Source of the DNA: Acidobacteriota bacterium
Lineage (GTDB): Bacteria; Acidobacteriota; UBA6911; RPQK01; JADFOI01
Direction: 5' to 3'
NCBI GenBank assembly: GCA_965218935.1
Contig: CBDCMH010000004.1
Location: 103,965-167,964 of the forward strand
DNA length: 64,000 nucleotides
The notes under the pieces are model-generated. The model had not been told where the DNA came from and did not search any database. It saw only the letters and a list, made by a program, of their open reading frames with translations. A program made the position numbers and the translations under genes. This document shows, piece after piece, positions 5,163 to 63,845 of this stretch (its first letter is position 1; each line of letters starts with the position of its first letter).

Positions 5163-5175
5163 ACCTCATTCCTTT

Positions 5176-8438: not shown

Positions 8439-8560
8439 AATATCCCTCTTTCGCCCTTGGAGGGCGCTCGTCGAGAACAGGTCGCGGTATCTTACAGAAC
8501 ACCTAATTACCCCGTCAATGAAGAAATGGTGAATGGCTCCAAATTGAAAGAATTAAAAGA

Positions 8561-9451: not shown

Positions 9452-9507
9452 CCCGTACTATTCATAAACTGTCTGCTGCAGCGACGACAGCCTATGAATA
9501 ATCCGGG
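9452..9507. repeat. Family-2 intergenic motif, palindromic full copy (ACTATTCATAAACTGTCTGCTGCAG ... CTATGAATAATCCGG)
   Basis: cccgtACTATTCATAAACTGTCTGCTGCAGcgacgacagCCTATGAATAATCCGGg lies directly after the stop of the peptidase gene and is convergent with the TPR gene. The left arm matches copies at 30174, 32975, 39151, and the right arm matches 46118. Confidence 0.7.
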
Positions 9508-10749: not shown

Positions 10750-10873
10750 AAAATCCTCTCTTCCTGCCAAGTGCAATTCGAGCTAGCTTTGTATGACTCC
10801 CCGCCTCCCTTTCAGCGTCGGGAAGCTTGGCTGCTCCATGTTAAACCTTTCATAAGGGTTAAGACAACCCCGA

Positions 10874-13169: not shown

Positions 13170-14290
13170 TTACTTAAAACGAACAAAAGCGACTTTGAGC
13201 CGGCGTGTTTGAGCCTGGGCCTTCTTCCACTGCACGAGGATGGGGCTCTGGTAGTTCCCTTGCACGATAGAGCCCGTCCCATCCCGGCCCTGCTGGGAGA
13301 CCAGAAGGCTCAGCGATCGCTTCAATCCCAGGAAGCGCGCAGCGGGTACGGCTTGGACCTTGTTGATGATGCGTTCCAAGAGTGACTCGCTCAGTCCCAG
13401 GGCGTCCAGGAACTCATTGACCACCTGTACCAAGTCGTACTCTGCGTAGTTCTTGGCTTTGGCGGGGATGGCCCTGGGATCGCGGAGCATATGCCTACCC
13501 TTTTCGGCCATGAATCGAAAGGGGTTGCGCAGCACCTCCGCCAAATCGTGCGTCATCAGCAGCGTTTCGTATTCATTGACGGTAAGACCGGCATGACGCT
13601 CGTTCGGTGCCAGAGAGATGTCAATCCGGCCATTGACGATCTCATAGTGTTCCAGCAGTTCGTGGAGCTGATCAAACAAGCCGAGACGGGTATCTTTGAG
13701 GTTTACCGAGTCCACGGGATGGCGGGAGAGTGGTATCCCCACCACCGTCTTGTCCACCAGTTCCTCCTCAGTGTAGCCAATCACCGTGGTTTGACGTTGG
13801 CGACTGGTGTCACTGTAGATGCCGTCCAAATCGACAAAGTAAACCGGAGTTTTCGGGGAGTTATGATAAGTCACACAATTTCTCAGGCCCGATCCAATGA
13901 AAGTCAGATGAGAATCAGCATTTCGTGGCTCCCCACGGCGCTGCTCCTCGCTCAGCTCGCTGCGTAGATGGAGTTGATCATGCTGATAGTTGGCTTCGGG
14001 TGGAAACAGCTTCTGGAAAGACTGCACAAAAGCGTGGAGGGAATCGCGACTATGTTCAGCCGCCGGCAGAAGCTCTGGTCGAAGTAGCCAGCCGTTGTGT
14101 GGTAAGAGTAATAAAAGGCTTTTTGAAAGCGCGACAGGATATCGCCAAACTGCTCAGTGATGCGCTCGCTCACATTGATAATATCTACACGGGCCTGCGG
14201 GGTGAGCTCCAGGGTGATCTCTGTTCTCGGGAATACCATCACTAACCTTGCGTCGTTCAGGAGCTTAGGCTCAGCTCCAAAGAAAGTCAA
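13170..14290 (-). pseudogene. YjbQ/UPF0047-family gene (secondary thiamine-phosphate synthase-like) with apparent -1 frameshift and a possible second tandem YjbQ-like domain
   Basis: Frame A (14290-13952) reads ...EITLELTPQARVDIINVSERI...YYSYHTTAGYFDQS, matching the YjbQ N-half (HTSAS-LTLNEN motif). An overlapping frame (from ~14065) reads RDSLHAFVQSFQKLFPPEANYQHD...GEPRNADSHL, matching the YjbQ C-half (RHDMERFF...PDNGNYEHD...MPSHIK). The frames switch in a GC-rich run near 14040-14060. Downstream in the same frame a second HAGLTVNEYE...NYAEYD segment resembles a repeat of the domain. The C-terminal extent is uncertain. Confidence 0.45.
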
Positions 14291-14323
14291 AGAGTCGACA
14301 CCTCTCTATTATATCTTTTTGAG

Positions 14324-15827: not shown

Positions 15828-18800
15828 ATGTCTTCTGATTGGGTACTGGCGCCATCGTTTCCTGAACTCCTGGATCCCCTGCTGGAGAAGCTGCGACAAT
15901 GTTGTCTGGACGATCCTTTGGCGCCCAAGTGGATCGTGGTCCCCACTTCAACGGCCGCCAATCACCTTCGCCTCAAACTGGGACAAGAGGTCGAGGAAGC
16001 GGTCTGGGCAGGCGTGCGCCTGATCCCACTCACCTACTTTCTGCGACGGCTCGGGGAAGCCGCCGAGCCCGCTTCCCATCAACGCTGGGGGCCGGCTCTG
16101 GATCTCCTTCTCTTCGAACTTGTCGAGCAGCTCCCTGTGAGTTCCCCGCTGTCACGGCTGCAGCACATGCCCAGTGGTTACCGTCTGCTCCGCCCCACCT
16201 TTTTGGATCTGGCAGATGGAGGCTTTGGCCTCGATCAGTTGGACATTGTGGAGGAGCTGGCAAAGGAACCCGATTTGGCTCCTCTGGAACAGCAAACCCT
16301 CCAGCTTTATGGGGCCTGGATCCGAGTGTTGGCTCAGCAAGATCGGGGTTGGGAACCCCTGGCACATCAGCGGATCCCCGAGTGGATCATGGAAGTCGAT
16401 ACACAAACCCTCATGGCTGCTCTAGCCTGCGAGAGCGGACAGACTCCACAGGTGTTCGTGTATGGTTTTTACGGCTTCACCGATGTCAACGCTCAGGTCA
16501 TCGCGGCCCTGGGAAGACGGATTGATCTGACCCTCTTCTATCCCTTTGTGAAAAAGGGAAAGAAGGCACACCCTGCATTCTCCTTCGGCCAGCCTGTTCT
16601 GGAGGATCTCAAGGTTCGGTTGGGCACAGCGCTCACGGTCGAACCCGACTCTGCGGGAGTCGACGAACAGGAGGGTTCCCCCGAGAGCATCCGCTTTTTC
16701 CTCCCCACCTTTCCTGAAGGGAAAGTTCCAGACCAACCCCCTTTCCTTACCTTCCAATATGCCTCGGGAATCCGGGCCGAAGTCCTCTCAGCAGCCCTTC
16801 GCGTGCGTCGGTGGATGGACGATCCGGAGCATCCGATTCCTGCCGCGGAGATCATGGTGGTGGCACCGGACAGCGCACCCTATTTCGATTCGATGCGAGA
16901 GGTTTTCGCTGCCTTCGCCATCCCTCTTCGCACGGTCGACGTTCCTGTGGGACTGAGTCCCGGCGGCCGCCCCTTACGCATGCTGGCCCGCATCTGGGAG
17001 GACCAGGCTTCAGCTGAGTGGCTTCTGGCTTACTTGCGGGACTATCCGGTGGCGGCTGCTCGAGGGATCAACCTGGACGAATTCGAACGGAAAGTCCGCC
17101 AATTAGGGGTTTGGGGAGATAGCAGCTGGAACGCTCTCCTTCCTCCCGAGCCCAACCACCCTCAGGTCCGGGAGAGCTATCTTCCCAGCTTCACCAGCCA
17201 GGAGAAGGCACTGGTCCAGGAAATTCTGGATCTGTGGGGAAGGGGTTCGAGGACTCAGGAGCGCACCTTCACGCCGAAGCGAGCTGCTCATTTTCTGAAC
17301 AAGCTCCGGGAAAGGTGGCTCCATGAACCCACCCTTTTGGACCCCTTGGTGGAAGCCCTCCAGTTCATGGAATCGTACCGCCCAGACCTGCCCATTAAAG
17401 AGTCGATGCTCCGGGAAATGCTCCTCCAGGTTGTCGACGATCTGGTGCAGAGCGATCCCCTGGACCGCCCCGGCGTCCTTTTCGTGCCTTCCATGCGAGC
17501 CCGCAGCCTGACCTCAAGAGCGACCGTCCTGTTGGGACTGGCCTCGGGAACCTGGCCTCCGCGTATCGAGGAGGATCCCCTTTTCTCCGACGCTTCACGG
17601 AGACGTCTGATGAGCAAAGCCCGCGACGTGGGACATCTGCTGCCGGTCAAGTCCCAGGTCAGCGAGGAAATGTCAATGCTCTTCTTTCTGTTGAACACCT
17701 CAGCCGAGCAGGTTCATTGGGTGATTCCGGAAAGTGACGATACGGGGCGAAGCGTGGCCCCTACCCCCTGGGTGCAGCGCTACATTCAACGCTGGGGCGG
17801 CGAACAGACCGAAACGGCGTGGAGCCGCATTCCCCGTGGACCGGCCCAGCAGGGAGAAGATCTCCTCAAACTGGACTCACAGGGCGGCTCCTTTCTTCCC
17901 CCTGATTTTCTGGTCCTCCTTCATCCCGACAGAACGAGCCTCCTCTCCGGGGAGATCCCTTACCCTTACCTTCTTCAAGCAAGAGAATTGAGGGGTCGAG
18001 AGCTGGACTGGAATGGACATATTCCGTCAGCCGCCCTGCCCGCAGGAAGGGAAGGAGAGCGAGTCAACGTGACCGATCTTGAGGTCCTGGCCAAATGTCC
18101 TTACCGTTTTTATGCGGACCGGTCAATGAAATGGAAACCTTTGATCGCCCTTCAATTTGTAGACGAAATGAATCCACTGGATTGGGGAAGTCTGGTTCAC
18201 AGTTTCCTGGAACACCTGATCGAGCCCGCACTCGGCCCGAAAACTTCCATGAAGGAAATCGCCGAATCCCTGTTGCGCTCTGAAGCAAAGGAGCTGGGTC
18301 AGGCTGCCAGGGAGTTTTTTGCCCGATTATCCCAGCGATTGGAAGTGCTGCCTCCTGTGTTTCGCCAGGCAGCGCTGAACAGACTGGAAAAGACGATCCA
18401 GGACTATCTGCAAGAGGTGGTGAAACACGGCCCTGAGGAAGATGTTCCGATGGACCTCGAATTCAAGAAGAGAGTTCCTTTTCCAGGTCTGGAAGAACTT
18501 CTGATTTCAGGACAGATGGACCGCATTGACCAACAGGATGGCCAGTTGCACATCTATGACTACAAGAGCGGCTCAGCACCCTATCCGAAACAGCTGGAGC
18601 GGGACGTTTCCCTGGGATATCGGGTGCAGTCCATCCTCTATCCCTGGATTTTCCATCACCCGAAAACGGAGTCTGAGACGGGATTCTCTTTTGTCTTTTT
18701 GGGGGATTCTCCCCCCAAGGAAATGCCGGTGAAGACCCAACCGGTGGTTGAGGAGTTCCTGCAGCCACTGGCCGAAATTCTCCAGAAGGGAATGTACTTG

Positions 18801-18977
18801 CCCACTCCAACCCAGACCCTGAAATTGAATGACATCGAGGGGGCCCATTCCTGCCACTATTGTGAATTCCTCTCTCTTTGCCGCCGCTTTGATCGAGGCG
18901 CCCATGATCGCTATTCCAGTTTCCTGAAGAGCCAGCTTCCCGCTCGCCTGAAGGCCATGAAGGAAAATCATCCATGA
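15828..18977 (+). CDS. addB: AddB/RexB-type helicase-nuclease subunit B (PD-(D/E)XK nuclease with C-terminal Fe-S cysteines)
   Basis: 1049 aa, immediately upstream of and overlapping the AddA-like gene by 4 bp. C-terminal RecB-type nuclease motif GQMDRIDQQDGQLHIYDYKSG and cysteine cluster ...CHYCEFLSLC. No canonical N-terminal Walker A (the equivalent region reads KWIVVPTSTAANHLRL). Confidence 0.65.
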   Translation: MSSDWVLAPSFPELLDPLLEKLRQCCLDDPLAPKWIVVPTSTAANHLRLKLGQEVEEAVWAGVRLIPLTYFLRRLGEAAEPASHQRWGPALDLLLFELVEQLPVSSPLSRLQHMPSGYRLLRPTFLDLADGGFGLDQLDIVEELAKEPDLAPLEQQTLQLYGAWIRVLAQQDRGWEPLAHQRIPEWIMEVDTQTLMAALACESGQTPQVFVYGFYGFTDVNAQVIAALGRRIDLTLFYPFVKKGKKAHPAFSFGQPVLEDLKVRLGTALTVEPDSAGVDEQEGSPESIRFFLPTFPEGKVPDQPPFLTFQYASGIRAEVLSAALRVRRWMDDPEHPIPAAEIMVVAPDSAPYFDSMREVFAAFAIPLRTVDVPVGLSPGGRPLRMLARIWEDQASAEWLLAYLRDYPVAAARGINLDEFERKVRQLGVWGDSSWNALLPPEPNHPQVRESYLPSFTSQEKALVQEILDLWGRGSRTQERTFTPKRAAHFLNKLRERWLHEPTLLDPLVEALQFMESYRPDLPIKESMLREMLLQVVDDLVQSDPLDRPGVLFVPSMRARSLTSRATVLLGLASGTWPPRIEEDPLFSDASRRRLMSKARDVGHLLPVKSQVSEEMSMLFFLLNTSAEQVHWVIPESDDTGRSVAPTPWVQRYIQRWGGEQTETAWSRIPRGPAQQGEDLLKLDSQGGSFLPPDFLVLLHPDRTSLLSGEIPYPYLLQARELRGRELDWNGHIPSAALPAGREGERVNVTDLEVLAKCPYRFYADRSMKWKPLIALQFVDEMNPLDWGSLVHSFLEHLIEPALGPKTSMKEIAESLLRSEAKELGQAAREFFARLSQRLEVLPPVFRQAALNRLEKTIQDYLQEVVKHGPEEDVPMDLEFKKRVPFPGLEELLISGQMDRIDQQDGQLHIYDYKSGSAPYPKQLERDVSLGYRVQSILYPWIFHHPKTESETGFSFVFLGDSPPKEMPVKTQPVVEEFLQPLAEILQKGMYLPTPTQTLKLNDIEGAHSCHYCEFLSLCRRFDRGAHDRYSSFLKSQLPARLKAMKENHP

Positions 18978-21900
18978 GCACACGGCCGTCTGCCCCACTT
19001 TCCGACGCAGCCGCTCGCAGGGAGGCGATGACGACTCCTCATCACGCCTTTGTGTGGGCGAGTGCGGGTACCGGAAAGACTCATACCCTGGCATTGCGAG
19101 CGCTTTACCTCCTCTTGAATGCCCCCTTTCTCTCTCCACAGGAGGGCGACGGGCAGGGCCCTGCGGGCGAGATCGGTTCCCTTTACAGCGCTCCCTCGCG
19201 GCAGGAACGTCTGAAGTCCGCCCGGGCCATCATTGGTTCCCTGATCCTCACCACTTTCACGCGCAAAGCCGCTGCCGAAATGCAGACCCGACTTTACCGC
19301 TACCTGGAGAGTGTCACTGCGGCCCAAACTCCTTCCCATCTGGAAACTGAAGATCCGCTGTTTTACGAGATCATTCAGACGGTTTTGAACAATCTGGAAT
19401 CGGGGCAAAACATGCCCTTGTTCGCCGGGCTGGGTGGGGAGGAATCCTTCCATCGTCTTCAGGCCGGAGCCCAGGCGTTATACGAACAGGCTGGGGAACT
19501 GCAAATCTCCACCATCCACAGCTTCGCAGCCTCCATCCTTCGCCGCCATCCCCTCCAGGCGGGGATTCCGCCAACGTCCCGTTTCGCCAGGGAAGACGAA
19601 GACGATCTACTCGGGTTAGAAGATCAGGTCCTGGAGCGCTGGTGGCAACGAAAGGTCTTGTCCGACCCTCAGCTGCAGAAAGAACTGGCCCAGCTGCTCA
19701 CAGTGGTGCCGGTCAGACACATCCGTGAGTGGCTGACGTACAGCTATCAGTCTCCCTGGATGGCCAAAGAATCTGAAGCTCTTCCCCTGGAGGGCGAAAA
19801 GGAGATACAGAAACTGGTCGATGCAGGCCATGCCCTGGTCCAATCCCTGTCCAGAGGGGGAGGCTCCAGAATTGAAGGAAACCGCGACCGGTTGGATCAG
19901 ATACTCCAGGGCATCACATCCCGTCAAAAAGGAGCCTTCAGGGAGCTGTGCGACTTCATCCTGCGAACCAAGCGGGACTTATTCCTGCATGACAAGATTA
20001 CGAAAACAGTCCGCCGCGCGATCGAGGGCCTTGCCCCCGAACATTTGTGCTACTTCCAATCCTGGACCGCTTTCTATATCCCCGCACTCCGCATCTGCCT
20101 GGCTCAGGAGTTTGCACCCATCTGGGCGGTCTGGACCCGGTTCCTGGGGCGCTTCGTCGACTGGGCCGAGGAAGCCGCTATGCGAGAGCTGGGTCTGATT
20201 ACCTTCGACGAGATGATTCGTCTGGCGGTCAGACTGCTCGAGCAGCACCCTTCCATCCGCCGGGCCGAACAGGCGAAGCTTCGAGCCTTGCTCGTGGATG
20301 AGTTCCAGGATACGGATCCGGACCAGCTTCGGCTCTTCAAGGCCCTGCTGAAGCATGACCCCGACGACCCACATGAGGTCCTCGGTTTCTTCGTGGGAGA
20401 CACGAAACAATCCATCTACCGCTTCCGCAGCGCCGATGTTCCCTCTATCGATGATTTTTGCCGCCGCTATGAAAGTCATACGGGATGCCAATTGAAACAG
20501 ACCGAGTTTCGTCTCAAGACCAGCTTTCGGAGCGTGAAAGCGGTAACCCGATTTGTAAATCACTTCTTCGAAAAAGAACTGACGCTGGCAAGCAAAGATG
20601 AAGCACTGGTTCCTTTTCGAACTGATGAGGAAGTCCTTCCGGAATGGATTTTTACCGACACCGACGGCGAAGGGAGGAATTTCAACGTCGATCAGGGGCG
20701 AAGCTACGCAGCGGCCCAAACCCTGGAGATGATCCAGGAGTACCTGGAGAGTTCCGCTTCGGAAAAGCCTCCCTATAAAGATATCCTGGTTCTGGTGAGA
20801 GACTGGCGGCAGGTTGATGCTCTCCTGCCGGTTCTTCAGAATGCCGGAATTCCCGTCATCAGCAGCGGCGCCAAGACCTTCTATCGCCAACCGGAGGTCC
20901 TGGATCTGTTGAATCTGCTTATCGCGCTCCTTCATCCTCAGGATAAACTGGCCACAGCGGCCGTCCTGCGAGGTCCTCTTCTCTATCTTTCCGATCCACA
21001 GCTCCACGACCTGCTGAAGGAAATTCCTCCTGAGCGGCTGTTTCACTCGCAACAGCCTCTTCCTGAATCTCTTCCTGAGGAAGTCCGAGCTCGGATCAAG
21101 CATCTGCGAAAACTGGCCGCAGGACGCCTCGAGTCAACGCTGGCGGAATGGCTGGGGGAAGTCCGAGCCTTCATCCCCACGGCTCTCTACACCCAACCTG
21201 GGGACTGGGAGGGAAGACCTTTGGTCCGAATCGGTCGGGTGTTTGAGAATTTTAAGGAGGCCATGGAGATGACCGTGATTCCGCCGCTGGTCTGGCTGTT
21301 GAAGCAGCGCACCCGGGCTGCGGAAACCGGCCGGTGGGACAGTGACAACCCGGGAGAAGATATTACGGTCGCTACCGAAAACGTTGAGGCGGTACGGGTG
21401 ATGACCATTCACAAAGCCAAAGGACTGGAAGGACGCTTTACTATCGTCTATGGGTGGAGTTCAGTTCTCTCCGACTTGGGAGATTCACCCGCAAAGTGGA
21501 AAAATCCGGAGGTGCTCAGCCTGACGGATGACAAGGGTCAAAAAGTGCAGGCCTTTTCCCTTCAATGGGGCCCACTCAAGATCGTCTCCTCATCCTATTC
21601 GGAAGCGTTGGAGGAGGAGCGCAAAGGCGTCCGGGCTGAGGCCGAACGCCTGGCCTACGTGGCCGTCACCCGTGCCCGTGATCGCATGGCCCTCTTGTGT
21701 CCCAGATCGAAGCACCGTCCTTTTCCGGATAGAATCCAGGACTTCATCGGCTCGGCCCGGCAGAAGATTTTGGCTGGGTCGGGTAGTGGGCATGCTGATA
21801 TTTGTAACGGCCATCTGCGTTTCATCCATCGGCCCGGTTTTGAAATCACCCCTCCCGAAGTGCCCTCTCCCTCGGTGAGCCTTCAGGAGGACGTTTATCA

Positions 21901-22495
21901 ATCTCTTTGGAAACAGCGCTACCTGGAATTCAAGTCACACCATCCTCCACTCCTTCGCCATCCTTCCGATCCAGAACACCGGGAGGAAGGGGAGGTCCGA
22001 GAAGATCATCAATATCCCGGAAAGGTGGACCGGGAAACCGGTCTGCTGGCCGGCCGTTTGGTACACATCTATCTCGAGCGTTATCTTCTCCAAGACGCTT
22101 TCGAGCCAGAAAACCTCTCCGCCTGTCTGAGGGAGATTCCAGGAGAGACTTCCGATTCAAGGTTAAAGCAAGGGGTGGAGAAAGTGTTGAGTGAGTTTTA
22201 CTCGGGGAAGCTGGTGGACCCCTCGGGACGACCCTATCGGGAACGAGTCCAAAGGGCACACGTTCTGGGACGTGAAATACCCGTCTATCTCCAGGACGAG
22301 GGTCAAGCGTGGCATGGCATCATCGATCTGGTTTTGGAGGAGGAGGAGATCATCCGGGCCATCGACTATAAAACGACAACTCAACAGGATCCCCTTCCAG
22401 AAGCTTATACACAACAGCAGCGCATCTACAGCGAAGCTCTGCGGCGCCTCTTCCCCGACCAGGATGTCGCCTTTGAATTCTGGTGGCTGAGGTAG
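18974..22495 (+). CDS. addA: AddA/RexA-type ATP-dependent helicase-nuclease subunit A (UvrD-like SF1 helicase + RecB nuclease domain)
   Basis: Walker A AFVWASAGTGKTHTL, helicase motif II LLVDEFQDTDPDQ, motif III KQSIYRFRSAD, and C-terminal PD-(D/E)XK motif GIIDLVLEEEEIIRAIDYKTT. 1173 aa. Confidence 0.8.
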   Translation: MSTRPSAPLSDAAARREAMTTPHHAFVWASAGTGKTHTLALRALYLLLNAPFLSPQEGDGQGPAGEIGSLYSAPSRQERLKSARAIIGSLILTTFTRKAAAEMQTRLYRYLESVTAAQTPSHLETEDPLFYEIIQTVLNNLESGQNMPLFAGLGGEESFHRLQAGAQALYEQAGELQISTIHSFAASILRRHPLQAGIPPTSRFAREDEDDLLGLEDQVLERWWQRKVLSDPQLQKELAQLLTVVPVRHIREWLTYSYQSPWMAKESEALPLEGEKEIQKLVDAGHALVQSLSRGGGSRIEGNRDRLDQILQGITSRQKGAFRELCDFILRTKRDLFLHDKITKTVRRAIEGLAPEHLCYFQSWTAFYIPALRICLAQEFAPIWAVWTRFLGRFVDWAEEAAMRELGLITFDEMIRLAVRLLEQHPSIRRAEQAKLRALLVDEFQDTDPDQLRLFKALLKHDPDDPHEVLGFFVGDTKQSIYRFRSADVPSIDDFCRRYESHTGCQLKQTEFRLKTSFRSVKAVTRFVNHFFEKELTLASKDEALVPFRTDEEVLPEWIFTDTDGEGRNFNVDQGRSYAAAQTLEMIQEYLESSASEKPPYKDILVLVRDWRQVDALLPVLQNAGIPVISSGAKTFYRQPEVLDLLNLLIALLHPQDKLATAAVLRGPLLYLSDPQLHDLLKEIPPERLFHSQQPLPESLPEEVRARIKHLRKLAAGRLESTLAEWLGEVRAFIPTALYTQPGDWEGRPLVRIGRVFENFKEAMEMTVIPPLVWLLKQRTRAAETGRWDSDNPGEDITVATENVEAVRVMTIHKAKGLEGRFTIVYGWSSVLSDLGDSPAKWKNPEVLSLTDDKGQKVQAFSLQWGPLKIVSSSYSEALEEERKGVRAEAERLAYVAVTRARDRMALLCPRSKHRPFPDRIQDFIGSARQKILAGSGSGHADICNGHLRFIHRPGFEITPPEVPSPSVSLQEDVYQSLWKQRYLEFKSHHPPLLRHPSDPEHREEGEVREDHQYPGKVDRETGLLAGRLVHIYLERYLLQDAFEPENLSACLREIPGETSDSRLKQGVEKVLSEFYSGKLVDPSGRPYRERVQRAHVLGREIPVYLQDEGQAWHGIIDLVLEEEEIIRAIDYKTTTQQDPLPEAYTQQQRIYSEALRRLFPDQDVAFEFWWLR

Positions 22496-22502
22496 CTCGT
22501 TA

Positions 22503-22538
22503 CCGGATTCGGCACCTGAGGTGCCTCCTACACTCCGG
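22503..22538. repeat. REP-like hairpin element, family 1 copy
   Basis: ccggattcGGCACCtgaGGTGCCTCCTACACTCCGG lies immediately after the addA stop. Confidence 0.7.
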
Positions 22539-22687
22539 AGGTCTGCAGCAAACCTAGAACTATGAAGCCGAACGGCTCTGTCCCTAAAGCAGCTTCCAAC
22601 TTCCTTGTCTCCCGTCTTCTTCTTCATGGTGTATGATGTAGCCGTTACATGGGTACACACACAGACCCTTGAAAAGGAGAGAAGCAC

Positions 22688-39923: not shown

Positions 39924-39988
39924 TTTGGTCCCCTGGTGATTCCTGAACCCGATTATATGCCGACGAACCCATTACCCGCAACAAGGCG

Positions 39989-41479
39989 AATTGCCTCATC
40001 AAAAATCTATTCGAAATGGATACGTTGCCTCATTAAAAAATCTATTCGAAATTGCCTGGCCCTGAGCAGGGGAATAGAAGTGTCCTCCATGAAGGAATGG
40101 AGGGCACCAATGAGGTTAACGATGGCAGAAAAGCGTGTATTGATCAAAAGTTTTGTCCCCCGCTACCGGAAGAAGGGCAAGAAGGTGAAGGGGGAAGTGT
40201 TGACGGAGTTTACCCAAATGACGGGCTACAACCGCTGCTATGGAGCCTATCTGCTTCGCCACCAGGGCAAGCGGATCCGGTTGAGCCCCAAGCTGGTGGC
40301 GGTAGGGGATATCGGCAAGAGAGTACGGCGAGAGCGGGCCCGCAAATACGACCAGAAAGTTCTAAAGGCGCTGACGATGATCTGGGAGATACTGGACTAT
40401 TTGTGTGGCAAACGTCTGGTCGCGATTTTGCCGGAAGTGGTACCCATTTTACAAAGACATGGGGAACTGAAAGTGGATGCCAGCACCCATGAGCGGTTGA
40501 TGCAGATCAGCGCCGCCACCATCGATCGGCTGCTGGAGCCCGAAAGGTGCAAGCACCGTCTCAAAGGACGATCCGGAACCAAGCCGGGAACGCTGCTCAA
40601 ACACCAGATTCCGATCAAGCGTTTCGCCGACTGGCAGGAGGATCGCCCCGGTTTTGTGGAAGTGGACCTGGTGGGCCATGAGGGAGGCCAGGGTCGGGGG
40701 GACTACCTTCAAACCCTGGATGTGACGGACGTGTACACGGGCTGGACAGAGGTCCGAGCGGTGCGCAATAAGGCCCAGGTGTGGGTCCTGGAAGCGATGA
40801 AGCTGCTTCAGAAGCGCTCGCCCTTCCCTTGGCTGGGGATGGCTTCGGACAACGGCAGCGAGTTCATCAACAAGCACTTGATTCGTTTTTGTGAGCAGGA
40901 AAAGATCAGCTTCAGCCGAACCCGCCCCTCGCGCAAGAATGACAACCCTTATGTGGAGCAGAAAAACTATTCGGTGGTTCGGCGGGCCGTGGGTTATGCT
41001 CGCTACGAGGGAGAGCGAGAACAGGAGCTGGTGAACGAGTTGTACGATCGGCTGCGACTGCAGATCAACTTTTTCAAGCCGGTCATGAAGATGGTGGCCA
41101 AGCAACGTCGAGGGTCTCGGATCTGGAAAAAGTATGATGTGCCGAAAACTCCCTACCGGAGGATCTGCGAGTCCCCTGAGGTGGCGGACAAGATCAAGCG
41201 GGAACTGGCCCGAGAGTATGAGAAGCTCAATCCGGCCCAGCTGGCACGGCAGATCGGCTGGCTTCAGAATTGCCTTTTGCTCAAACCGACTCCTGAGCAG
41301 AAGAAACGATGGGAAGCGGGCTGGATGTGAAAATCTTTCTCTTGCTGCAGGCTGCGGGTGTTGGGCAAGGGGTTGCCACTCCTCTGGTTGGTGCTTTTTA
41401 CCACCACTTTTTGCAATCCCTTTCGGATAGATTCTTAGTGAGGCAACGAATACCCTTTGGAATAGATTTTTACGTGAGG
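39989..41479. mobile_element. ~1.5 kb IS element, copy 2 (same family and orientation as copy 1)
   Basis: Near-identical to 10874-12374, with at least one nucleotide difference (GCC vs GTC, giving A vs V in the transposase). Same doubled terminal repeats. Confidence 0.8.
40080..41330 (+). CDS. DDE transposase (rve superfamily), IS copy 2
   Basis: Same 416-aa protein as 10964-12214 except SFAPRY to SFVPRY. The track ORF 39936 start is an upstream in-frame read-through; the ATG at 40080 corresponds to copy 1. Confidence 0.8.
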   Translation: MSSMKEWRAPMRLTMAEKRVLIKSFVPRYRKKGKKVKGEVLTEFTQMTGYNRCYGAYLLRHQGKRIRLSPKLVAVGDIGKRVRRERARKYDQKVLKALTMIWEILDYLCGKRLVAILPEVVPILQRHGELKVDASTHERLMQISAATIDRLLEPERCKHRLKGRSGTKPGTLLKHQIPIKRFADWQEDRPGFVEVDLVGHEGGQGRGDYLQTLDVTDVYTGWTEVRAVRNKAQVWVLEAMKLLQKRSPFPWLGMASDNGSEFINKHLIRFCEQEKISFSRTRPSRKNDNPYVEQKNYSVVRRAVGYARYEGEREQELVNELYDRLRLQINFFKPVMKMVAKQRRGSRIWKKYDVPKTPYRRICESPEVADKIKRELAREYEKLNPAQLARQIGWLQNCLLLKPTPEQKKRWEAGWM

Positions 41480-41518
41480 CAACGGGCAAGTAGCCATGAT
41501 AGAGTACCGATCGCGTAT

Positions 41519-46181: not shown

Positions 46182-47162
46182 GTGTCCCCTCTTAGATCAA
46201 ACCCGGACAATCTCATTCGTCACGATTGGAGTGATGAGCAGATCCAGGCTATCCACGATTTACCCCTTCCGGATTTGCTGTTTCAGGCCCAGTTGGAACA
46301 CCGCCGCTACCACGATCCTCAGAAAGTGCAGCTTTGCACCCTGTTGAGCATCAAGACCGGCGGCTGTCCAGAGGACTGCAGCTATTGCCCCCAGAGTGCC
46401 TATTACGATAGCGGCGTCCCTTCACAAGATTTACTGGATATAGAACAGGTCTTGGAAGCTGCCCGCCAGGCCCGGGGTCACGGTTCGACACGTTTTTGCA
46501 TGGGCGCTGCCTGGAGAGAGGTCCGCCAGGGTGCTGAATTCGAGCGTGTATTGGAGATGGTTCGGCAGGTCCGTGAACTGGGAATGGAGGTGTGTTGCAC
46601 TCTGGGAATGCTGAACTCCGAACAGGCCCATCGCCTGGCTGAAGCGGGACTAACCGCTTACAACCACAACCTGGATACCGGCCCCGATTACTATGACCAA
46701 ATCATTACCACTCGCACCTATGAGGACCGCCTCCAGACACTCGCTTATGTCCGTGAGGCGGGCGTGACGGTCTGTTGTGGAGGAATTCTGGGGATGGGCG
46801 AAAGCTCACAGGATCGGATCGCTCTTTTACGGGTTCTTTCTCACCTGAATCCCCATCCGGAAAGCGTTCCCATCAACTCTCTGGTTCGGGTCAAGGGAAC
46901 TCCTTTGGGTGATCGCTCCCCGGTGGATCCCATCGAGATTGTCCGTATGATCGCCACGGCACGGATCGTCATGCCCAAAAGCCGAGTCCGACTGAGTGCA
47001 GGGCGCACCGAAATGTCGGTGGAGACTCAAGCCCTCTGCTTTGTGGCAGGAGCCAATTCCATTTTTAGCGGCGAGAAACTCCTTACCACTCCCAATCCGG
47101 ACCTCTACCACGACCGTTCGCTACTGGATAAACTGGGGCTCTCGCCACTTGAAGGGTCATGA
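46182..47162 (+). CDS. bioB: Biotin synthase
   Basis: Radical-SAM CxxxCxxC ([13 protein letters not shown]), YNHNLDT motif, and [2Fe-2S] cysteines (CCTLG...CCGGIL). Confidence 0.9.
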
Positions 47163-48316
47163 AGGTTCTTCTGCAGGAACTGGAGGGGGAGCTGGAGAAG
47201 ATCCGGACCCAGAACCTCTACCGCCGGTTGGCCGATCCCCAAGGTCTCGACTTTTGCTCCAATGACTACTTGGGACTCTCCCAGGACCCCAAATTTCGAG
47301 CCGCTATCCTGGAGAAGCTCGAGGAAGCCACCGGGCTGGACTCGGTGTCCTCACCCGCCTCCAGGCTGCTGCGCGGGAATACCTCCCGGCATCGAGCCCT
47401 GGAGCAAAGACTCTCCCTTTATAAAGGGACGGAAGCGGCACTGATTTTCCCAACCGGATACCAGACCAACATCGGGGTGTTGACGGCGCTGATGGGGAGC
47501 CAGGATCGAGTTCTTTCCGATGCCCAAAACCATGCCAGCATTATCGACGGATTGCGTTTGAGTGGGTGTCAGAAGGTGGTTTTCCCCCACCTCGATGAAG
47601 AAGCTGTGGAAGACGCCCTGAGTCGGTCTCATCGGGAAGGAAAAACTTTTCTGGTTACCGAATCCCTTTTCAGTATGGACGGAGATGTCGCTCCCCTGGA
47701 AACCTATGCTGAACTGGTGGAGAAGCATGGGGCCTACTTAATTGTGGACGACGCCCATGCGGTGGGTGTTTTCGGCAATGAGAAGGGGTCGGGTCTGACC
47801 GAACGCTTCGGCGTAGAGAAACGGGCCCTGGCCATCGTGTCCACCTTCGGGAAAGCCTTTGGCCTCTTTGGTGCTTTTGTGGCGGGGCCTCAGATCGTCA
47901 TCGATTACCTGATCAACCGCTGCCGCCCATTCATATTCACCACGGCCGTCCCTCCTCTTCTTCTTTATGGCGTGGAGGCAGCTCTTGATCTGCTAGGTGC
48001 CGAGCCCGAGCGGCGAAAGCGCGTGTGTCTGCTGGCCGATCGGCTGCGCCAGCGGTTCGAAGAGACAGGGCTGGATACTCTAAAGAGCGCCGGCCCCATT
48101 GTCCCCGTAGTGTTGGGAGAAAGTGAGCGGGCACTGGCGGTGGCAGAACGGCTCCAGAAGAAAGGTTTTGACGTGCGTGCCATCCGCCCTCCCACCGTAG
48201 CCCCGGGCACCTCCCGGCTGAGAATCTCTGTCCATGCCGATCACACAGATCAGCAAATAGACCAGTTGGCCCAAGCCGTGGTGGAGGCGATCAAGAGCAC
48301 TAAGGGTCGGCAATGA
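47159..48316 (+). CDS. bioF: 8-amino-7-oxononanoate synthase
   Basis: PLP-dependent alpha-oxoamine synthase. Lysine motif STFGKAFG, and [12 protein letters not shown]. 4-bp overlap with bioB. Confidence 0.85.
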
Positions 48317-48999
48317 GCCTGGTCGTTGTGGGAACGGGAACCGAAATCGGCAAAACCATCACCTGTGCGGTGTTGTTGTCTCGTTACGCCGGGATTTCCA
48401 AGCTAGCCTATTGGAAGCCCATTGCCACCGGTTCGGCCGAGCCCAGAGACACCCAGGTGATCGAGCGCCTGTGTGGCCCTGAGGTGGAGATCCTTCAAGA
48501 GCTCTACCTTTTTGAACCGCCTGTCTCCCCTCATCTGGCCGCTCGACTGGCCAATAAAAAGATCCATCCAGAAAGAGTGTTGAAAGCACTGGAGACCTAC
48601 CAGCAGGAAGATAGCAAACGCACTTTGATCATCGAGGGCATTGGAGGTTTACTGGTACCCTTAACCGAAGACGGTTATCTGCTGGCAACTCTTCTCAAAG
48701 AGATGGCCCTTCCCTGTCTGCTGGTGGCCTCCAGTATCCTGGGAACGATTAATCACACCCTTCTGACCCTTGAGGCCATGCGCTCCCGAAACTTGAAGGT
48801 GGTGGGAGTGGTGCTTAATGGACCGCCGAATCACGAGAATCGCCTGGCCATCGAAGAATTCGGAAGCGTCCAGGTCATTAGCGAAATTGAGCCCATCGGG
48901 TCATTATCATCGAAAAGCGTGCTTCAGATCTCCCGTGGATTCGACCGCAAGGCTTTGCTAGAGTCGTATTTGCAAAAGGTGGGGGAATCCGGAGACTAA
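48313..48999 (+). CDS. bioD: Dethiobiotin synthetase
   Basis: P-loop GTGTEIGKT at the N-terminus, 228 aa. Overlaps bioF and bioA. Confidence 0.85.
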   Translation: MSLVVVGTGTEIGKTITCAVLLSRYAGISKLAYWKPIATGSAEPRDTQVIERLCGPEVEILQELYLFEPPVSPHLAARLANKKIHPERVLKALETYQQEDSKRTLIIEGIGGLLVPLTEDGYLLATLLKEMALPCLLVASSILGTINHTLLTLEAMRSRNLKVVGVVLNGPPNHENRLAIEEFGSVQVISEIEPIGSLSSKSVLQISRGFDRKALLESYLQKVGESGD

Positions 49000-50351
49000 T
49001 GGGTGAAATGAGTTCACAGGAAACTGACTCAAAAGACCTGAGTGCTCTCTGGGTGGAGCAGGACCGGCGCTATGTTTGGCATCCTTACACTCAAATGCTC
49101 ACCGCGCCCAAGGCCATCCCGGTCGAAAGGGCAGAAGGGGTTTACCTTTACACTTCCGACGGGCAGCGGATCCTGGATGGTATCTCTTCCTGGTGGGTCA
49201 ACATTCATGGCCACAATCATCCCCGTTTGAATCGGGCTTTGCAGGAACAGGCTGACCGTTTCGCCCAAGTGATCTTCGCCGGCTTCACTCACGAACCGGC
49301 CGTGCGCCTGGCCGCCGAGCTGGTCCAGCGAACAGCCCCCAGTCTGACCCGCGTCTTCTTCTCCGACGATGGTTCCACGGCAGTAGAAGTGGCACTGAAG
49401 ATGGCCTATCAGTGCTGGAGGAACCGAGGTGAATCCAAGAGAAATCTCTTTGTGGCCTTCGAGCACGCCTACCACGGAGATACCTTTGGAGCCATGGCAG
49501 CGGGCGGCGTCGAGGTCTTTCACTCAGAATACAGCGGCCTCTTCTTTGAAGTTCGGCGGGCCCGGGTACCCGGTGGTTCCCAGCCCAGGGGAGCAGATTC
49601 CCAAGAAAAGTCTCAGCCAGCGGCTGAAGAGCTGGAGGAGATCCTTGAAGAGGAGGGGCCCCGGGTGGCAGCCGTGATCATGGAACCGATGGTTCAGGCC
49701 GCCGGTGGGATGATCGTGTGGCCGATCGATTTTTTGCGCCATGTACGAGAGGTGACGCAACACCACGGCATCCCGCTCATCGCCGATGAAGTGTTCACGG
49801 GATTTGGACGAACCGGAAAGATGTTCGCCTGCCAACACGGTCCTATTGAACCCGACATCCTGTGCCTTTCCAAAGCCTTAACGGGTGGATATCTGCCCCT
49901 GGCAGCTACCCTGGCCAGTGAAGAGATCTATCAATCCTTTTTGAGCGAGGACCGGCGGAAAACCTTTTTTCACGGCCACTCTTATACCGGCAACGCCCTG
50001 GCTTGCGCAGTGGCATTGGAAAGTCTGGCCGTCCTGGAGGAAACAAAAAGTCTTGATCGGGTCATGGAATTGGAGGGGCTCTTCATCGAGCGGTTGGAGC
50101 CGCTGCAATCTCTTCCAGTCGTGGAGGAAGTTCGGGGGATGGGGGCACTCGGAGTCGTGGAACTGTCGACCCAGAGGGAAAGTGGGTACCTGGACGAGAG
50201 GGGCCCGAGGTTGGCTCAAGCTTTTCTGGAACGAGGAATTCTCCTGCGTCCTCTTGGAAATGTCCTCTATTTTCTCCCTCCCTATGTGATCACGGATGAA
50301 GAAGTCCACTCGGTTTTCGATGCCATTGAAGAGGTTCTGGGGGATTCGTGA
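48999..50351 (+). CDS. bioA: Adenosylmethionine-8-amino-7-oxononanoate aminotransferase
   Basis: Class-III aminotransferase. IADEVFTGFGRTGKMFA carries the PLP-lysine region; WHPYTQM N-terminus. 450 aa. Confidence 0.85.
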   Translation: MGEMSSQETDSKDLSALWVEQDRRYVWHPYTQMLTAPKAIPVERAEGVYLYTSDGQRILDGISSWWVNIHGHNHPRLNRALQEQADRFAQVIFAGFTHEPAVRLAAELVQRTAPSLTRVFFSDDGSTAVEVALKMAYQCWRNRGESKRNLFVAFEHAYHGDTFGAMAAGGVEVFHSEYSGLFFEVRRARVPGGSQPRGADSQEKSQPAAEELEEILEEEGPRVAAVIMEPMVQAAGGMIVWPIDFLRHVREVTQHHGIPLIADEVFTGFGRTGKMFACQHGPIEPDILCLSKALTGGYLPLAATLASEEIYQSFLSEDRRKTFFHGHSYTGNALACAVALESLAVLEETKSLDRVMELEGLFIERLEPLQSLPVVEEVRGMGALGVVELSTQRESGYLDERGPRLAQAFLERGILLRPLGNVLYFLPPYVITDEEVHSVFDAIEEVLGDS

Positions 50352-54599: not shown

Positions 54600-54942
54600 T
54601 CCTATGAGTCTCCTCCTGATTCCATCAACTCGTGCAAGAACTTAGCACACCTGAAACCCTAGTGTCTCGTCACCAAGTGACGAAAGCACTGACCTGCTCC
54701 TGGAAGGACGTTGAGTCGCTGCGCTAGGGTTGTTACAAATATCCTTGTCGTTCTCTCAGGTTCTCTGTAATAATGGAGCGACGTTACTTGCTCTTACCCT
54801 TTGAAGGAGGTTTCGGTGCTAGAACCCTACACCGCTTTGCGCCTTCCGAGCACTAGTTTTTGTGTTCGGACTCAGGAAGATATTCAGAAGAATTTGGATC
54901 TGATTTGTGCTTACATCTGCGGGCAGCTGAGGTACTGGACTT

Positions 54943-55284
54943 ATGAAATGGAACGAAGACTGGCTTAAGGCGAATCGACCATCTGCATCCCAACACCCCA
55001 AAAGATACACTTTTTGGCCCCGGGGTCGGGGCCGGCTGATTTTTGGGTATTTCATTTTCATCACCCTCTTGGATTACGTTGCTTTGACCCTCTTTGGCGG
55101 ACGACCCACTCTGATAGCGGGCATGCCCCTGCTGATCTGGATCACGGTGATTTTCGCTGCACTGACGATTGCCGGGATACTCGGATTCGATTCCCGGACA
55201 GGGAATCAGGACTCCCCTCCTGTGGAAACCATCCCACAGGCTGAGGAGAACGAGTTGAAGAGCAACCGTGAACTTCCCTCCTGA
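54943..55284 (+). CDS. DUF4212-like small membrane protein (accessory subunit of sodium:solute symporter)
   Basis: 113 aa, two TM helices (LIFGYFIFITLLDYVALTLFG; LLIWITVIFAALTIAGILGF). Overlaps the start of the downstream SSS transporter by 17 nt, as is typical for this pair. Confidence 0.6.
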   Translation: MKWNEDWLKANRPSASQHPKRYTFWPRGRGRLIFGYFIFITLLDYVALTLFGGRPTLIAGMPLLIWITVIFAALTIAGILGFDSRTGNQDSPPVETIPQAEENELKSNRELPS

Positions 55285-56797
55285 AATTCGCCAACTGGTC
55301 CTCTCCAACTACCCCTTGATTATCGCGACTCTGGTCGCCTACTTTGTCGTCTTTGCTCTCATTTCCTGGGCGGCAAAGCGAAAACTGGCCAAGGACGTGG
55401 GTGATTACGTGGTGGCCTCCCGGAATCTGGGATGGGTGGTGGTGACCTTCACCATGTATGCCTCGGTTCTCAGTGGAGTTGGGATGGCAGGAATACCCAG
55501 CACCATCTACACCATTGGCGTGCCCTTCGTCATTACCGCTCTGACGGGTATCACCATCTCAACAGCCCTCCTATGGTATTTCGGGCCCCGCATCTGGGTG
55601 CTGGGAAAGGAATATAGCTTTACCACACCGGGTGATTTGCTGGGAGAGTATTACCAAAGCGATATCGTCCGAATCTACACCGTGATCGCCAGCGTGCTTT
55701 ACAACATCGCTTATATTGTGGCCCAGCTTCTGGCTGGAGGGATCCTCCTGAGTGTTCTGTCCGGGAATGTCATTTCCTTGAGTGCAGGACTCTGGATGAT
55801 CACCATTATTGTGATGATCCATGTGGCGCTGGCAGGTCTGCGGGGTATTGCCTGGCTGGATTTTTTCAATGGCGCATTGATTCTCCTTTTGCTCTTTTTA
55901 TTCGGCGTGATCATCATGGCTGCCGCGGGAGGACCAGGCAATGTCGTGGCCGGACTGGGTGGAATCAGAGACAGGTTCATCGTCATTCCAGGAATGATCG
56001 GTATCTTTTCTCCATCCCGCATCTATGGGGTCGCGATCGGCTTGAGTATCGGAGCCATCGTTCTCTCCCCCTCAGCCTGGATCCGCATGTATTCTGCCCG
56101 CAGTCGATCACACTTTGCCAAGATCGGCGTTTTGATGCTTATCCTGTGGCTCATTTCCCACGTGATCGGGACCTACCTGATCGGGACCTATGGTCGAGTC
56201 CTGTTTCCCGATGCCGAAAATCCAGACTTCGTCTCTTCTCTTCTCGCCTTCGGGGTCCTGCCCGTCTTTATTGCCACGCTGTTCTTGATCGCGGTCCTGG
56301 CCGCGATTATATCTACCACCGACACTTATCTTCACACTCTGACGGCGACTGTTGTTCGAGACTGTGTCCGCACTCTGTTTTGGCCAAAGATGAGCGATGC
56401 TCAAGAATTCCGACTCAATCGTACCGTCGTCATTGGGGCTGCAGCGATCTGTATTATACTGGCTTTGCTGAATCCTGTTCTCATCACACCATTGGCCATC
56501 TTTGCAGGAGGGATTACGGTCCAGCTTCTCCCTCCGCTGGTGGGTGCCGTCACCTGGTCCCGCGCCTCGACAGAAGCTGCCCTGGTCGCTCCTGCCGTCG
56601 GCATCCTGTTGACTTTAAAGTGGGAGATGGGGATTTTTCCGGGGATTCTTCCCCCTCCGCTTGCGCCTGCGTTGCCTGGACTGGCGGTTGCATTCTTCAT
56701 CAACGTCTTCTTATTCATCGTGATCAGTTACCTCACCAAACCTCAGCCTCCCGAGCAGGTCGAAAAGTTCCACGGGCTCCTGGCAAAAAAATTGTAG
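55268..56797 (+). CDS. Sodium:solute symporter family (SSS) transporter
   Basis: 509 aa, ~13 TM segments. The N-terminal region ...DYVVASRNLGWVVVTFTMYASVLSGVGMAGIPSTIY is characteristic of SSF permeases. Confidence 0.8.
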   Translation: MNFPPEIRQLVLSNYPLIIATLVAYFVVFALISWAAKRKLAKDVGDYVVASRNLGWVVVTFTMYASVLSGVGMAGIPSTIYTIGVPFVITALTGITISTALLWYFGPRIWVLGKEYSFTTPGDLLGEYYQSDIVRIYTVIASVLYNIAYIVAQLLAGGILLSVLSGNVISLSAGLWMITIIVMIHVALAGLRGIAWLDFFNGALILLLLFLFGVIIMAAAGGPGNVVAGLGGIRDRFIVIPGMIGIFSPSRIYGVAIGLSIGAIVLSPSAWIRMYSARSRSHFAKIGVLMLILWLISHVIGTYLIGTYGRVLFPDAENPDFVSSLLAFGVLPVFIATLFLIAVLAAIISTTDTYLHTLTATVVRDCVRTLFWPKMSDAQEFRLNRTVVIGAAAICIILALLNPVLITPLAIFAGGITVQLLPPLVGAVTWSRASTEAALVAPAVGILLTLKWEMGIFPGILPPPLAPALPGLAVAFFINVFLFIVISYLTKPQPPEQVEKFHGLLAKKL

Positions 56798-56811: not shown

Positions 56812-56958
56812 TCCGGAACGTAGGAGACACCTGGTGTAGTGGCCGCTCTCAGAGCGGCCTTCTGGAATGTAGGAGGCACCTCAGGTGCCGAACGGCCACA
56901 AAACACCCCCGGATTTTCGGATTCGGCACCTGAGGTGCCTCCTACATTCCGGAGGTGT
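56812..56958. repeat. Compound REP-like cluster (family 1): degenerate copy, GGCCGCTC-TCAG-AGCGGCC hairpin, and an inverted pair of GGCACCTSAGGTGCC units
   Basis: ccggaacgtaggagacacctggtgt ... GGCCGCTCtcagAGCGGCC ... ggaatgtaggaGGCACCtcaGGTGCCgaa ... ggattcGGCACCtgaGGTGCCTCCTACATTCCGGagg. Located after the SSS stop and convergent with the PhoU-like gene. Confidence 0.75.
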
Positions 56959-61484: not shown

Positions 61485-61989
61485 TAAAAGTGGTAAATCA
61501 TAATCAGGATCTCCAAGATTTGTCAACCAGTCTGTCCCTACCCGTTTTCGCCTGTGAAATCGTGCATGGGAGCCTGTGCTCGTGTTATCCAACTCTTCAG
61601 GAGCCTTTTTTGCACACCCGGCAGCCAGCAACATTCTCCACCTGTCAAGTTCTGTTAACACCCTCCCCATCCATCCAGAATCGGCTAATTGCCTACGGCG
61701 GCTAACCTTACCGCTCAATCCCAGAAAATAACCTGTCAGCCCAAGTTGACGTGAACTGAAACGATGAGCCTCCCTGAAGACTCACCAGAATGCCCTCGTA
61801 TTCGGTCAGACCCAAGCCCTGTCAGAGGCTTAGCAGATGCTCCCGGCACCCTGTATTTTCTGGAACGGAAATTGCTTCTTGTCTTGGAGATGTCGCCCGA
61901 GTATTTGGTCCTGGCTATATTGACGGAAAGATTCGGTGCTTGTGGAGGTGATCGAATGGATCGAGCAGTAACATTGAAGGAGAAGATTC

Positions 61990-62433
61990 ATGAGATCCCG
62001 TAACGATGTTGGAAGAGGAATCCACCGGAAAAAGTCCAAAATGCCGCTCCTGATGGCTGGTCTGTTCGTATGCCTGGTGGGAATGATCGTACCCGTTAGC
62101 GCTCAAGGGAGCCGCGGCTTCATTTCTGCCGAGTTTTCCCGTCCGCAACAAGAATGGTCGATTCAGGAAGTAGCCCAGCGCTATGGTGTTACCGAAGCGG
62201 TCGAACTCTCCTTTCAACTTCAGCAGGCAGAAGAAGCCCACCGGGAAATGGAGAAAATTAAGAGAGCTCAACAGCGGGACCGGGAACTTCGGAGCAAGGT
62301 CGCAGAACTGGCCAAGACTTCAATGAAACTCTATCAACGATTCGATAATCCCTCGGAAACCCACGCGGATACTCCTCAACTGGCAAAAAAGTGCGAGGAG
62401 CTGGCCAAGGCCATTAAGAAGCTCTTGCGCTGA
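61990..62433 (+). CDS. Hypothetical secreted alpha-helical protein
   Basis: 147 aa. Signal peptide MPLLMAGLFVCLVGMIVPVSAQG after a basic N-terminal region. Lys/Glu-rich coiled-coil-like C-terminus. Confidence 0.45.
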   Translation: MRSRNDVGRGIHRKKSKMPLLMAGLFVCLVGMIVPVSAQGSRGFISAEFSRPQQEWSIQEVAQRYGVTEAVELSFQLQQAEEAHREMEKIKRAQQRDRELRSKVAELAKTSMKLYQRFDNPSETHADTPQLAKKCEELAKAIKKLLR

Positions 62434-62436
62434 AGT

Positions 62437-62550
62437 GCTGACTGCAGCCGGCAGACCGGCTGAAATTCAAAATCTCAAATTCTAAATTTCAAACCTGACC
62501 TGGAACCTGGAACCCGGAACCTGGAACGCGCGCGAAGCGCGCTCTGGCTC
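62437..62550. repeat. Family-3 element plus tandem heptamer repeats and GC palindrome
   Basis: gctgactgCAGCCGGcagaCCGGCTGaaattcaaaatctcaaattctaaatttcaaacctgaCCTGGAACCTGGAACCCGGAACCTGGAACgCGCGCGaagCGCGCtc. Starts 4 nt after the stop of the 61990 gene. Confidence 0.7.
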
Positions 62551-62685
62551 CTGTCTCCCGTCTTCGCCCTTGCCCACTGTCTCACTGGCAAAGTACAATC
62601 CTCTTTTGGCGAATTCTGACTCTGCGAGTGACCGTTCTGTGACCTGTTCACAGGAATAGAAACGACCCTGGAGGCACTTGTTGAT

Positions 62686-63845
62686 ATGAAAAGTGGGCAA
62701 GACCTCAAGGAGCTGTGTGCTGAAGCCCAGAGGATTCGGGACCGTGGCAAGGGTCGAGTCATCAGCTTTTCCCCAAAGGTCTTTATCCCCCTGACCCGAC
62801 TATCCCCCTGACCCGACTTTGCCGGGATTTCTGCACCTACTGCACTTTCCGGCAGGCTCCTCAGCAGGCGAAACGACTTTACATGACGCCCCAAGAGGTG
62901 CTCGATGTCGCCCGAGCGGGCCAGCGATCAGGCTGTCGGGAAGCTCTGCTTGTCCTGGGAGAAAAACCGGAGCAGCGCTATCCAGAAGCGGGGAGCTGGC
63001 TGCAGGAGAACGGCTATGAGAGCACCCTTGAATACCTGCGAGAGATGTGTGCGCTGGTACTTCGTGAAACAGATCTATATCCGCACAGCAATCCTGGCAC
63101 AATGACTCGAAGTGAGTTAGAGGATCTCAAGGGCCTCAACGTGTCCATGGGGCTGATGCTGGAAAGCACCAGTGCCCGGCTCCATGAGCCTGGCGGCCCT
63201 CACGAGCACGCCCCCAGCAAACTCCCTCAAGTGCGACTTCGAACCCTGGAGCTTGCCGGGGAACTGCGGATCCCTTTTACCACTGGCCTTCTGATTGGCA
63301 TTGGCGAAACGCCTGAAGAGCGAATCGACGCTTTGTTGGCCATCAAAGATCTACAGGATCGTTTTGGCCACATCCAGGAAGTGATCCTTCAGAATTTTCG
63401 CGCCAAGCCTGGAACTGCGATGGAAAAGGCCTCGGAGGCGTCTCATCGTGAAATGCTGGAAACCGTAGCCGCTGCACGCGTTATCCTGGGCTCGGAAATG
63501 AACATCCAGGTGCCGCCCAACCTCTCGTCGCAATACCTGGATTATCTCGAGGCTGGGATCAATGACTGGGGAGGCATCTCGCCAGTGACTATAGACTTCG
63601 TCAACCCCGAGACTGCCTGGCCCAATATCCTTGTACTGAAGCAGGAAATGAACTCTCGCGGGTATGAGCTGCGAGCTCGTTTTCCGGTCTACCCGGAATA
63701 CATCCTGCACAGATCTCAATTTCTGCCTCCATCCCTGCTCAAACGACTTCGCCTGGAGGCTGATTCACAGGGTTACTTTGCGGGAGCGTGGGACACTCCC
63801 TGGTGTCCTGTGCCACCCCATCCACACCGTGAGACACAACCATGA
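62686..63845 (+). pseudogene. cofG: CofG-like radical-SAM enzyme (FO synthase subunit 1 / CofG-CofH-MqnC-MqnE family) interrupted by a 17-bp tandem duplication
   Basis: ATG at 62686 gives MKSGQDLKELCAEAQRIRDRGKGRVISFSPKVFIPLTRLSP*. The main ORF (62883-63845) is out of frame with it and contains GLLIGIGETPEERI and other CofG-like regions. Removing one copy of TATCCCCCTGACCCGAC (62784-62800 = 62801-62817) restores KVFIPLTRL-CRDFCTYCTF, the canonical CxxxCxxC cluster motif. Confidence 0.6.

Follow-up and report, generated by a model that had tools for sequence, protein, structure and literature searches.

A 17-bp Tandem Duplication Separates the Start of a cofG Gene from Its Radical-SAM Cysteine Motif in an Acidobacteriota Contig

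Results and Discussion

Anatomy of the cofG locus

The stretch of Acidobacteriota DNA analyzed here, 64,000 nucleotides in full and referred to below as the window, ends in a cofG gene followed by the first codons of cofH. The features of this end of the window, all on the plus strand, are as follows.

62570 to 62599, plus strand: single sigma-70-like promoter match upstream of cofG, weak and consensus-only
62686 to 62811, plus strand: cofG 5' fragment, ATG start, 41 codons and a premature TGA created by the duplication; its N-terminus aligns with CofG homologues
62784 to 62800, plus strand: copy 1 of the 17-mer TATCCCCCTGACCCGAC, nucleotides 99-115 of the open reading frame, codons F33 to L39
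62801 to 62817, plus strand: copy 2 of the 17-mer (the extra copy), missing in the related sequences L001-L005 and L090
62818 to 63845, plus strand: cofG 3' remainder, out of frame with the start, holding the CxxxCxxC motif and identical to the intact gene in the sibling sequence L004
62883 to 63845, plus strand: longest start-codon open reading frame in the 3' frame, 320 aa, without the Fe-S cluster motif; public record P0123
63842 to 64000, plus strand: start of cofH, first 52 codons, the gene being cut at the window end; full length (432 aa) in siblings

An earlier note on this DNA had described two perfect 17-mers placed back to back at 62784 and 62801, and both a direct sequence scan and Tandem Repeats Finder bear this out. 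Across the 64 kb of the window there are exactly two copies of the 17-mer, arranged head-to-tail, with none elsewhere on either strand. Identity at period 17 extends from 62784 to 62818, that is, over the two copies and one shared T, and it is this T at 62818 that gives the duplication its 1-nt junction overlap. Tandem Repeats Finder reports a period of 17, 2.1 copies and 100% matches, with a score of 70 that is the top score in the window. In our own scan, the pair is the sole perfect tandem duplication with a period of 12-60 in the 64 kb; 30 dinucleotide-preserving shuffles produced none, and ~4e-6 are expected analytically.

The consequences for the reading frame are also as the earlier note had set them out. 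The frame that opens at the ATG at 62686 terminates with ...KVFIPLTRLSP* at 62809-62811, while the radical-SAM cysteine motif, CRDFCTYCTF, is left in a separate frame in which the earliest ATG, GTG or TTG lies at 62883, downstream of the motif. Deletion of one copy of the 17-mer yields a 380-aa open reading frame that reads ...KVFIPLTRLCRDFCTYCTF..., with the CxxxCxxC cysteines at C40, C44 and C47. In the record as deposited, the motif is thus not in frame with the N-terminus, and it becomes so only after one 17-mer is removed. The duplicated bases encode F33-L39, which sit directly before these three cysteines and fall within the element FSPKVFIPLT.LCRD.C.YC, which is invariant across eight homologues.

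Identity of the gene and its surroundings

The repaired 380-aa protein scores 453.8 bits against the CofG model TIGR03550 (cutoff 213.35) and 427 bits against NF004884 (cutoff 209), and Pfam places a Radical_SAM domain in it. The score with the CofH model is far under its cutoff. MqnC and MqnE were also considered as identities and are ruled out, as both scores fall far under the curated equivalog cutoffs (68.3 bits against 428.1 for MqnC and 59.3 bits against 434.55 for MqnE). On the profile scores, the broken gene is predicted to be CofG proper, subunit 1 of FO synthase, so that of the CofG/CofH/MqnC-family label it had been given, the CofG part stands and the MqnC part does not. The nearest named homologues are CofG proteins of Acidobacteria MAGs with 74-77% identity. 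A protein scan of GTDB-based genome contigs gave a best match of only 66% identity, indicating that this collection holds no close species representative.

At 63842-63845, the tetranucleotide ATGA contains both the start codon of cofH and the stop codon of cofG, which agrees with the coupled arrangement proposed previously. The 52 cofH codons that lie within the window do not differ from those of sibling cofH, and the full-length sibling CofH scores 464.4 bits with TIGR03551 (cutoff 374.1). FO, which is the deazaflavin head group of F420 and also serves some photolyases as an antenna pigment, is the joint product of CofG and CofH (PMC8498797). No second CofG/FbiC-like gene was found among the window open reading frames scanned, the only other radical-SAM gene being bioB. 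The interval 61700-62900 has no Rfam match that would point to a riboswitch or other RNA upstream of cofG. Two short tandem arrays lie upstream of the gene at 62463-62527 (AAATTCAAAATCTC in 2.2 copies and ACCTGGA in 4.3 copies); they are the same in siblings and without an Rfam match.

The remainder of the window has several features of its own. An apparently intact four-gene cluster at 46182-50351, with 4-nt or 1-nt junction overlaps, has a Pfam content that fits bioB-bioF-bioD-bioA, and an AddAB-like helicase-nuclease pair is located at 15828-22495. An IS5-like element at 2325-3773 (DDE_Tnp_1/DUF772) encodes a 452-aa transposase and is flanked by CTAG target duplications. The sibling contig has an empty site at this position, and a further IS5-like copy is present in the sibling sequence L005 at 1285-2738, equivalent to window 54723-54727. 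Presence and absence of this element between near-identical genomes indicate that its transposition is polymorphic. An rve-family IS is present in two copies of 1501 bp that are 99.93% identical (10871-12371 and 39987-41487), and a related copy is found at 8438-9896 of a more distant relative (L003), directly upstream of cofG. A 39-bp intergenic sequence occurs three times with 97% identity (5173-5211, 22504-22542 and 56915-56956) and may be a REP- or terminator-like element.

Related assemblies carry a single copy

Near-identical sibling contigs were gathered by exact look-up of neighboring proteins. They comprise L004, L087, L092 and L093 from contig ctg835968_16x_l (893 kb) of ENA assembly ERZ25067264, hereafter the sibling contig; L005, L091 and L094 from ENA assembly ERZ25072511; and L006 and L090 from Logan run ERR13605531, with L090 representing an independent Logan assembly. 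Indels aside, these groups are at least ~99.9% identical to the window. L004, L005 and L090 are all of the siblings that reach the site, and each has a single 17-mer and an intact 380-aa CofG. The more distant relatives L001 and L002 (93% nucleotide identity) and L003 (86%) are also single-copy, such that one 17-mer is seen in 6 of 6 related sequences drawn from five assemblies. Beyond the extra 17 bases, the window cofG shows no difference from the intact gene in L004, and the repaired product is an exact match to the public protein P0121.

The broken version, by comparison, is traced to one deposited contig. The 320-aa restart product P0123 is present in NCBI and ENA records, on a 190,916-bp contig, whereas exact look-up of the 320-aa and 41-aa broken products among contigs returned none. 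A DNA pattern with one or two copies of the 17-mer gave no matches in the genome and metagenome contig collections. The private variants of the window are absent from Logan, and the same holds for the sample from which L004 derives. Judged from these sequence comparisons, the duplication is private to one record and very young.

These data bear directly on one of the explanations, a reversible on/off switch in which gain and loss of the 17-bp duplication would toggle FO/F420 synthesis (or synthesis of the FO-photolyase antenna) in a mixed ON/OFF population. Slippage could in principle return a perfect tandem duplication exactly to one copy, three assemblies carry an ON allele and one an OFF allele, and duplications that revert within open reading frames are known from S. 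pneumoniae serotypes 3, 8 and 37 (Waite et al. 2001 and 2003, as relayed in PMC4243769). The cofG site, however, offers no pre-existing repeat tract. The 17-mer is present just twice, with microhomology limited to 1 nt, and in all relatives it occurs once; conservation at the site is that of the coding sequence itself and nothing beyond; and there is no obvious selective logic for toggling a cofactor pathway. Variable copy number among related strains, by which phase variation is recognized, is not what we see, as two copies occur in the window only. We regard a switch as very improbable.

Recoding would rescue the deposited sequence without any change to the DNA. A -1 slip on UCC CCC UGA would give ...LTRLSPLTRLCRDFC..., a CofG with a 6-residue insertion, and on paper the elements are present: a P-site tRNA-Pro on CCC, a C before it, and a stop codon in the A site. 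The site nonetheless lacks a canonical X XXY YYZ heptamer, and the insertion would be placed within an element that does not vary among homologues, immediately ahead of the first cluster cysteine. Moreover, all homologues retrieved as proteins are single-frame; the frameshift being missing in all of them, nothing would have evolved to use recoding. This is the least probable of the readings considered, and we give it almost no credence.

Because the lesion is private and the relatives have one copy, there is no case for a conserved repeat tract, a contingency locus or a programmed frameshift. Whichever its origin, the lesion is a single-occasion duplication of 17 bp, with 1 nt of homology at its junction, and no evolved device. 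Of the three origins that had been proposed for it, a recent duplication and an assembly artefact both remain, while the on/off switch finds no support, given the single copy found in six sequences from five assemblies. A transposon footprint was considered and rejected, since the local insertion sequences give 4-5-bp target duplications (CTAG), not ones of 17-20 bp.

Five of six small indels between the window and its siblings share a 500-bp lattice

All differences between the window and its siblings were listed over ~58 kb. They amount to ~25 SNPs, ~2:1 non-synonymous to synonymous, and six small indel-type events, which are given below.

E4, window 4535-4557, L093 1726-2083: 356-bp IS fragment in the sibling contig in place of ~21 bp; two-way comparison only
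W1, window 14053: one G of GG missing in the window, splitting a 373-aa hypothetical gene (13170-14291, minus strand)
E3, window 46064, L087 7752: 1-bp G difference; two-way comparison only
E2, window 54548, L004 2536-2539: 4 extra bases in the sibling contig; L005 is as the window
E1, window 60047, L004 8039-8078: 20 bp perfectly duplicated in tandem in the sibling contig (1-nt overlap), by which an HtrA-like gene is split
W2, window 62784-62818: the cofG 17-bp duplication, extra in the window; one copy in L004, L005 and L090

The gene split by W1 is whole in L091 and L092, as well as in 356-aa JGI/NCBI homologues. The 4-bp insertion E2 truncates a phosphodiesterase gene in ctg835968_16x_l, and the HtrA-like gene interrupted by E1 has its full 478 aa both in L005 and in the window. 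In L004, this HtrA-like gene also has a nonsense SNP and a W-to-R change within 364 bp, showing that private changes cluster in one gene.

The name ctg835968_16x_l presumably follows the metaMDBG naming style. For polishing, metaMDBG divides contigs into 500-nt windows that do not overlap, and a fault in window trimming affected its earlier versions (PMC11392814, PMC13087279). On these two grounds, the polishing windows and the contig name, the indels were tested for a 500-bp period. E4, W1, E3, E2 and E1 are found at one phase, 375-397 in sibling coordinates and 47-64 in window coordinates. For these five events the Rayleigh R is 0.995-0.999, the period of 500 is first of the 1941 tested, and the Monte Carlo p is ~1e-5. 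The four sibling-contig events taken alone give an R of about 0.995-0.998 and a p of about 4e-5 to 3e-4, and W1, which is an event of the window, lies exactly on the sibling lattice (coordinate 460894, phase 394). With five indels at one 500-bp phase, the 20-bp duplication in the sibling contig is very probably a window-stitching artefact, that is, technical.

The cofG duplication does not follow this pattern. W2 has a window phase of 301 as compared with ~47-64 for the others, placing it ~250 bp away from the lattice defined by the other five indels. Its junction is at most 3 bp from the lattice half-step, for which the chance is ~0.025, and when all six events are included a period of 250 ranks first. 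We give this half-step fit little weight, as no documented 250-nt offset was found.

Separate observations concern split genes elsewhere in such assemblies. Within the cluster of proteins at least 90% identical to the SSF transporter at window 55268-56797, several ENA members from contigs of 0.14-3.2 Mb are 127-336 aa long as against 509 aa, a hint that genes are commonly split in long-read assemblies of this kind.

Assembly error or genuine loss of function

The two readings that remain are a consensus or stitching error in a long-read metagenome contig and a genuine mutation. We lean slightly toward the former. In that case, the extra 17 bases would have been introduced while the contig was built or polished, and the organism would carry an intact, working cofG-cofH (FO synthase) operon, as its siblings do. 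The window contig would presumably have come from a pipeline like that of the sibling contig, with the same kind of error giving rise to the duplication.

Several observations point in this direction. A single assembly has the lesion, the near-identical ones being intact, and a look-alike, the 20-bp duplication that also has a 1-nt overlap, is present on the 500-bp lattice of ctg835968_16x_l. In the regions comparable across all three lineages, private frameshifting indels versus private SNPs number 2 versus 5 in the window, 2 versus 6 in the sibling contig, and 0 versus 20 in the L005 lineage; such indels are therefore over-represented in the window and the sibling contig, not in L005, with a hand-calculated hypergeometric probability of ~0.03. 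Perfect tandem duplications whose length is not a multiple of 3 are rare at large, with one (13 bp, in L034) in 1.27 Mb from 80 unrelated loci, setting aside a simple ATAA repeat and another that is nested within a 33-bp array. Published rates for long-read metagenome assemblies are ~4 indel errors per 100 kb, which could alone explain the two private indels of the window.

Other data argue against an error. The cofG duplication is the only indel off the 500-bp lattice, and with a lattice common to both contigs it would be located in the middle of a polishing window, the part that a window polisher handles most reliably. The other window genes tested give full-length Pfam matches. Short tandem duplications are, in addition, a classical spontaneous mutation. 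General frameshift noise in the window was also considered and rejected, given these Pfam matches and the single other private indel, at 14053.

Some of the same observations favor a genuine and very recent loss-of-function allele, in which replication slippage or template switching at 1 nt of microhomology would have duplicated the 17 bp. Translation would then stop after 41 codons, and no active CofG would be made, with the frame closed at codon 42, no start codon ahead of the cluster motif, and a 320-aa product that does not contain this motif. FO would be lost together with any dependent F420 or FO-photolyase function, and, were the lesion real, the translationally coupled cofH would probably be under-expressed. 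Both the deposited sequence and the 320-aa protein called from it (P0123) show the duplication, which is off the lattice that marks the other indels, and the rest of the window is well assembled. There are also signs of weak purifying selection, namely the ~2:1 ratio among private SNPs, the insertion sequences that are polymorphic between siblings, and an HtrA-like gene that is broken in L003 as well (4847-6282, split by a 1-bp deletion at ~5365). FO synthase is, furthermore, dispensable in other bacteria; nine fbiC frameshift alleles are reported among >33,000 M. tuberculosis isolates (PMC8484543).

Set against a genuine allele, no second assembly or read set with two copies was found and the private variants of the window are absent from Logan, neither cofG nor the start of cofH shows secondary decay, and the near-identical kind of lesion in the sibling contig looks technical. 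By our own estimate, made from ~5 private SNPs per 30 kb and typical mutation spectra, only ~0.05-0.1 real tandem duplications of this size are expected in 64 kb. A genuine allele is thus a serious contender that we place somewhat short of an even chance, and an assembly consensus error is the reading that we slightly prefer.

Implications and comparison with known systems

Both leading readings are ordinary events of already known kinds, and the biological weight of the cofG lesion is small either way. If it is real, it is one more strain-private pseudogene, in a strain unable to make FO or F420. If it is technical, the annotation of the MAG wrongly gives a truncated 320-aa CofG and understates the F420/FO capacity of the organism. 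The methodological lesson is that small indels in this assembly family cluster on a 500-bp lattice, and frameshifts in such MAGs therefore need a read check before a pseudogene or a switch is called.

Among known systems, simple-sequence-repeat contingency loci share with cofG the principle of on/off control by repeat copy number within a coding region. Those loci, however, have long tracts of 1-7-nt units that are conserved across strains, whereas cofG has a single 17-nt duplication. Read as a switch, cofG would be an analogue of pneumococcal capsule phase variation placed on a cofactor pathway. As the cap3A, cap8E and tts duplications are described in the source cited above, they too are perfect, head-to-tail duplications within an open reading frame that abolish the product and could revert; the difference, as far as that account extends, is that at cofG there is no sign of recurrence and the relatives are all single-copy. 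The fbiC frameshifts of M. tuberculosis (PMC8484543) likewise affect a radical-SAM FO synthase in a dispensable cofactor pathway, but in the present case CofG and CofH are split and the lineage is an uncultured one of Acidobacteriota with no known drug selection. The last comparison is with assembler window and consensus errors of the kind associated with racon-like 500-nt polishing in metaMDBG (PMC11392814, PMC13087279). The cofG duplication differs from these in lying ~250 bp off the lattice of the other five indels; it shares with them a lesion confined to one assembly that frameshifts a conserved gene, and it has a counterpart in the 20-bp duplication of the sibling, which sits on the 500-bp lattice with the other anomalies of that contig.
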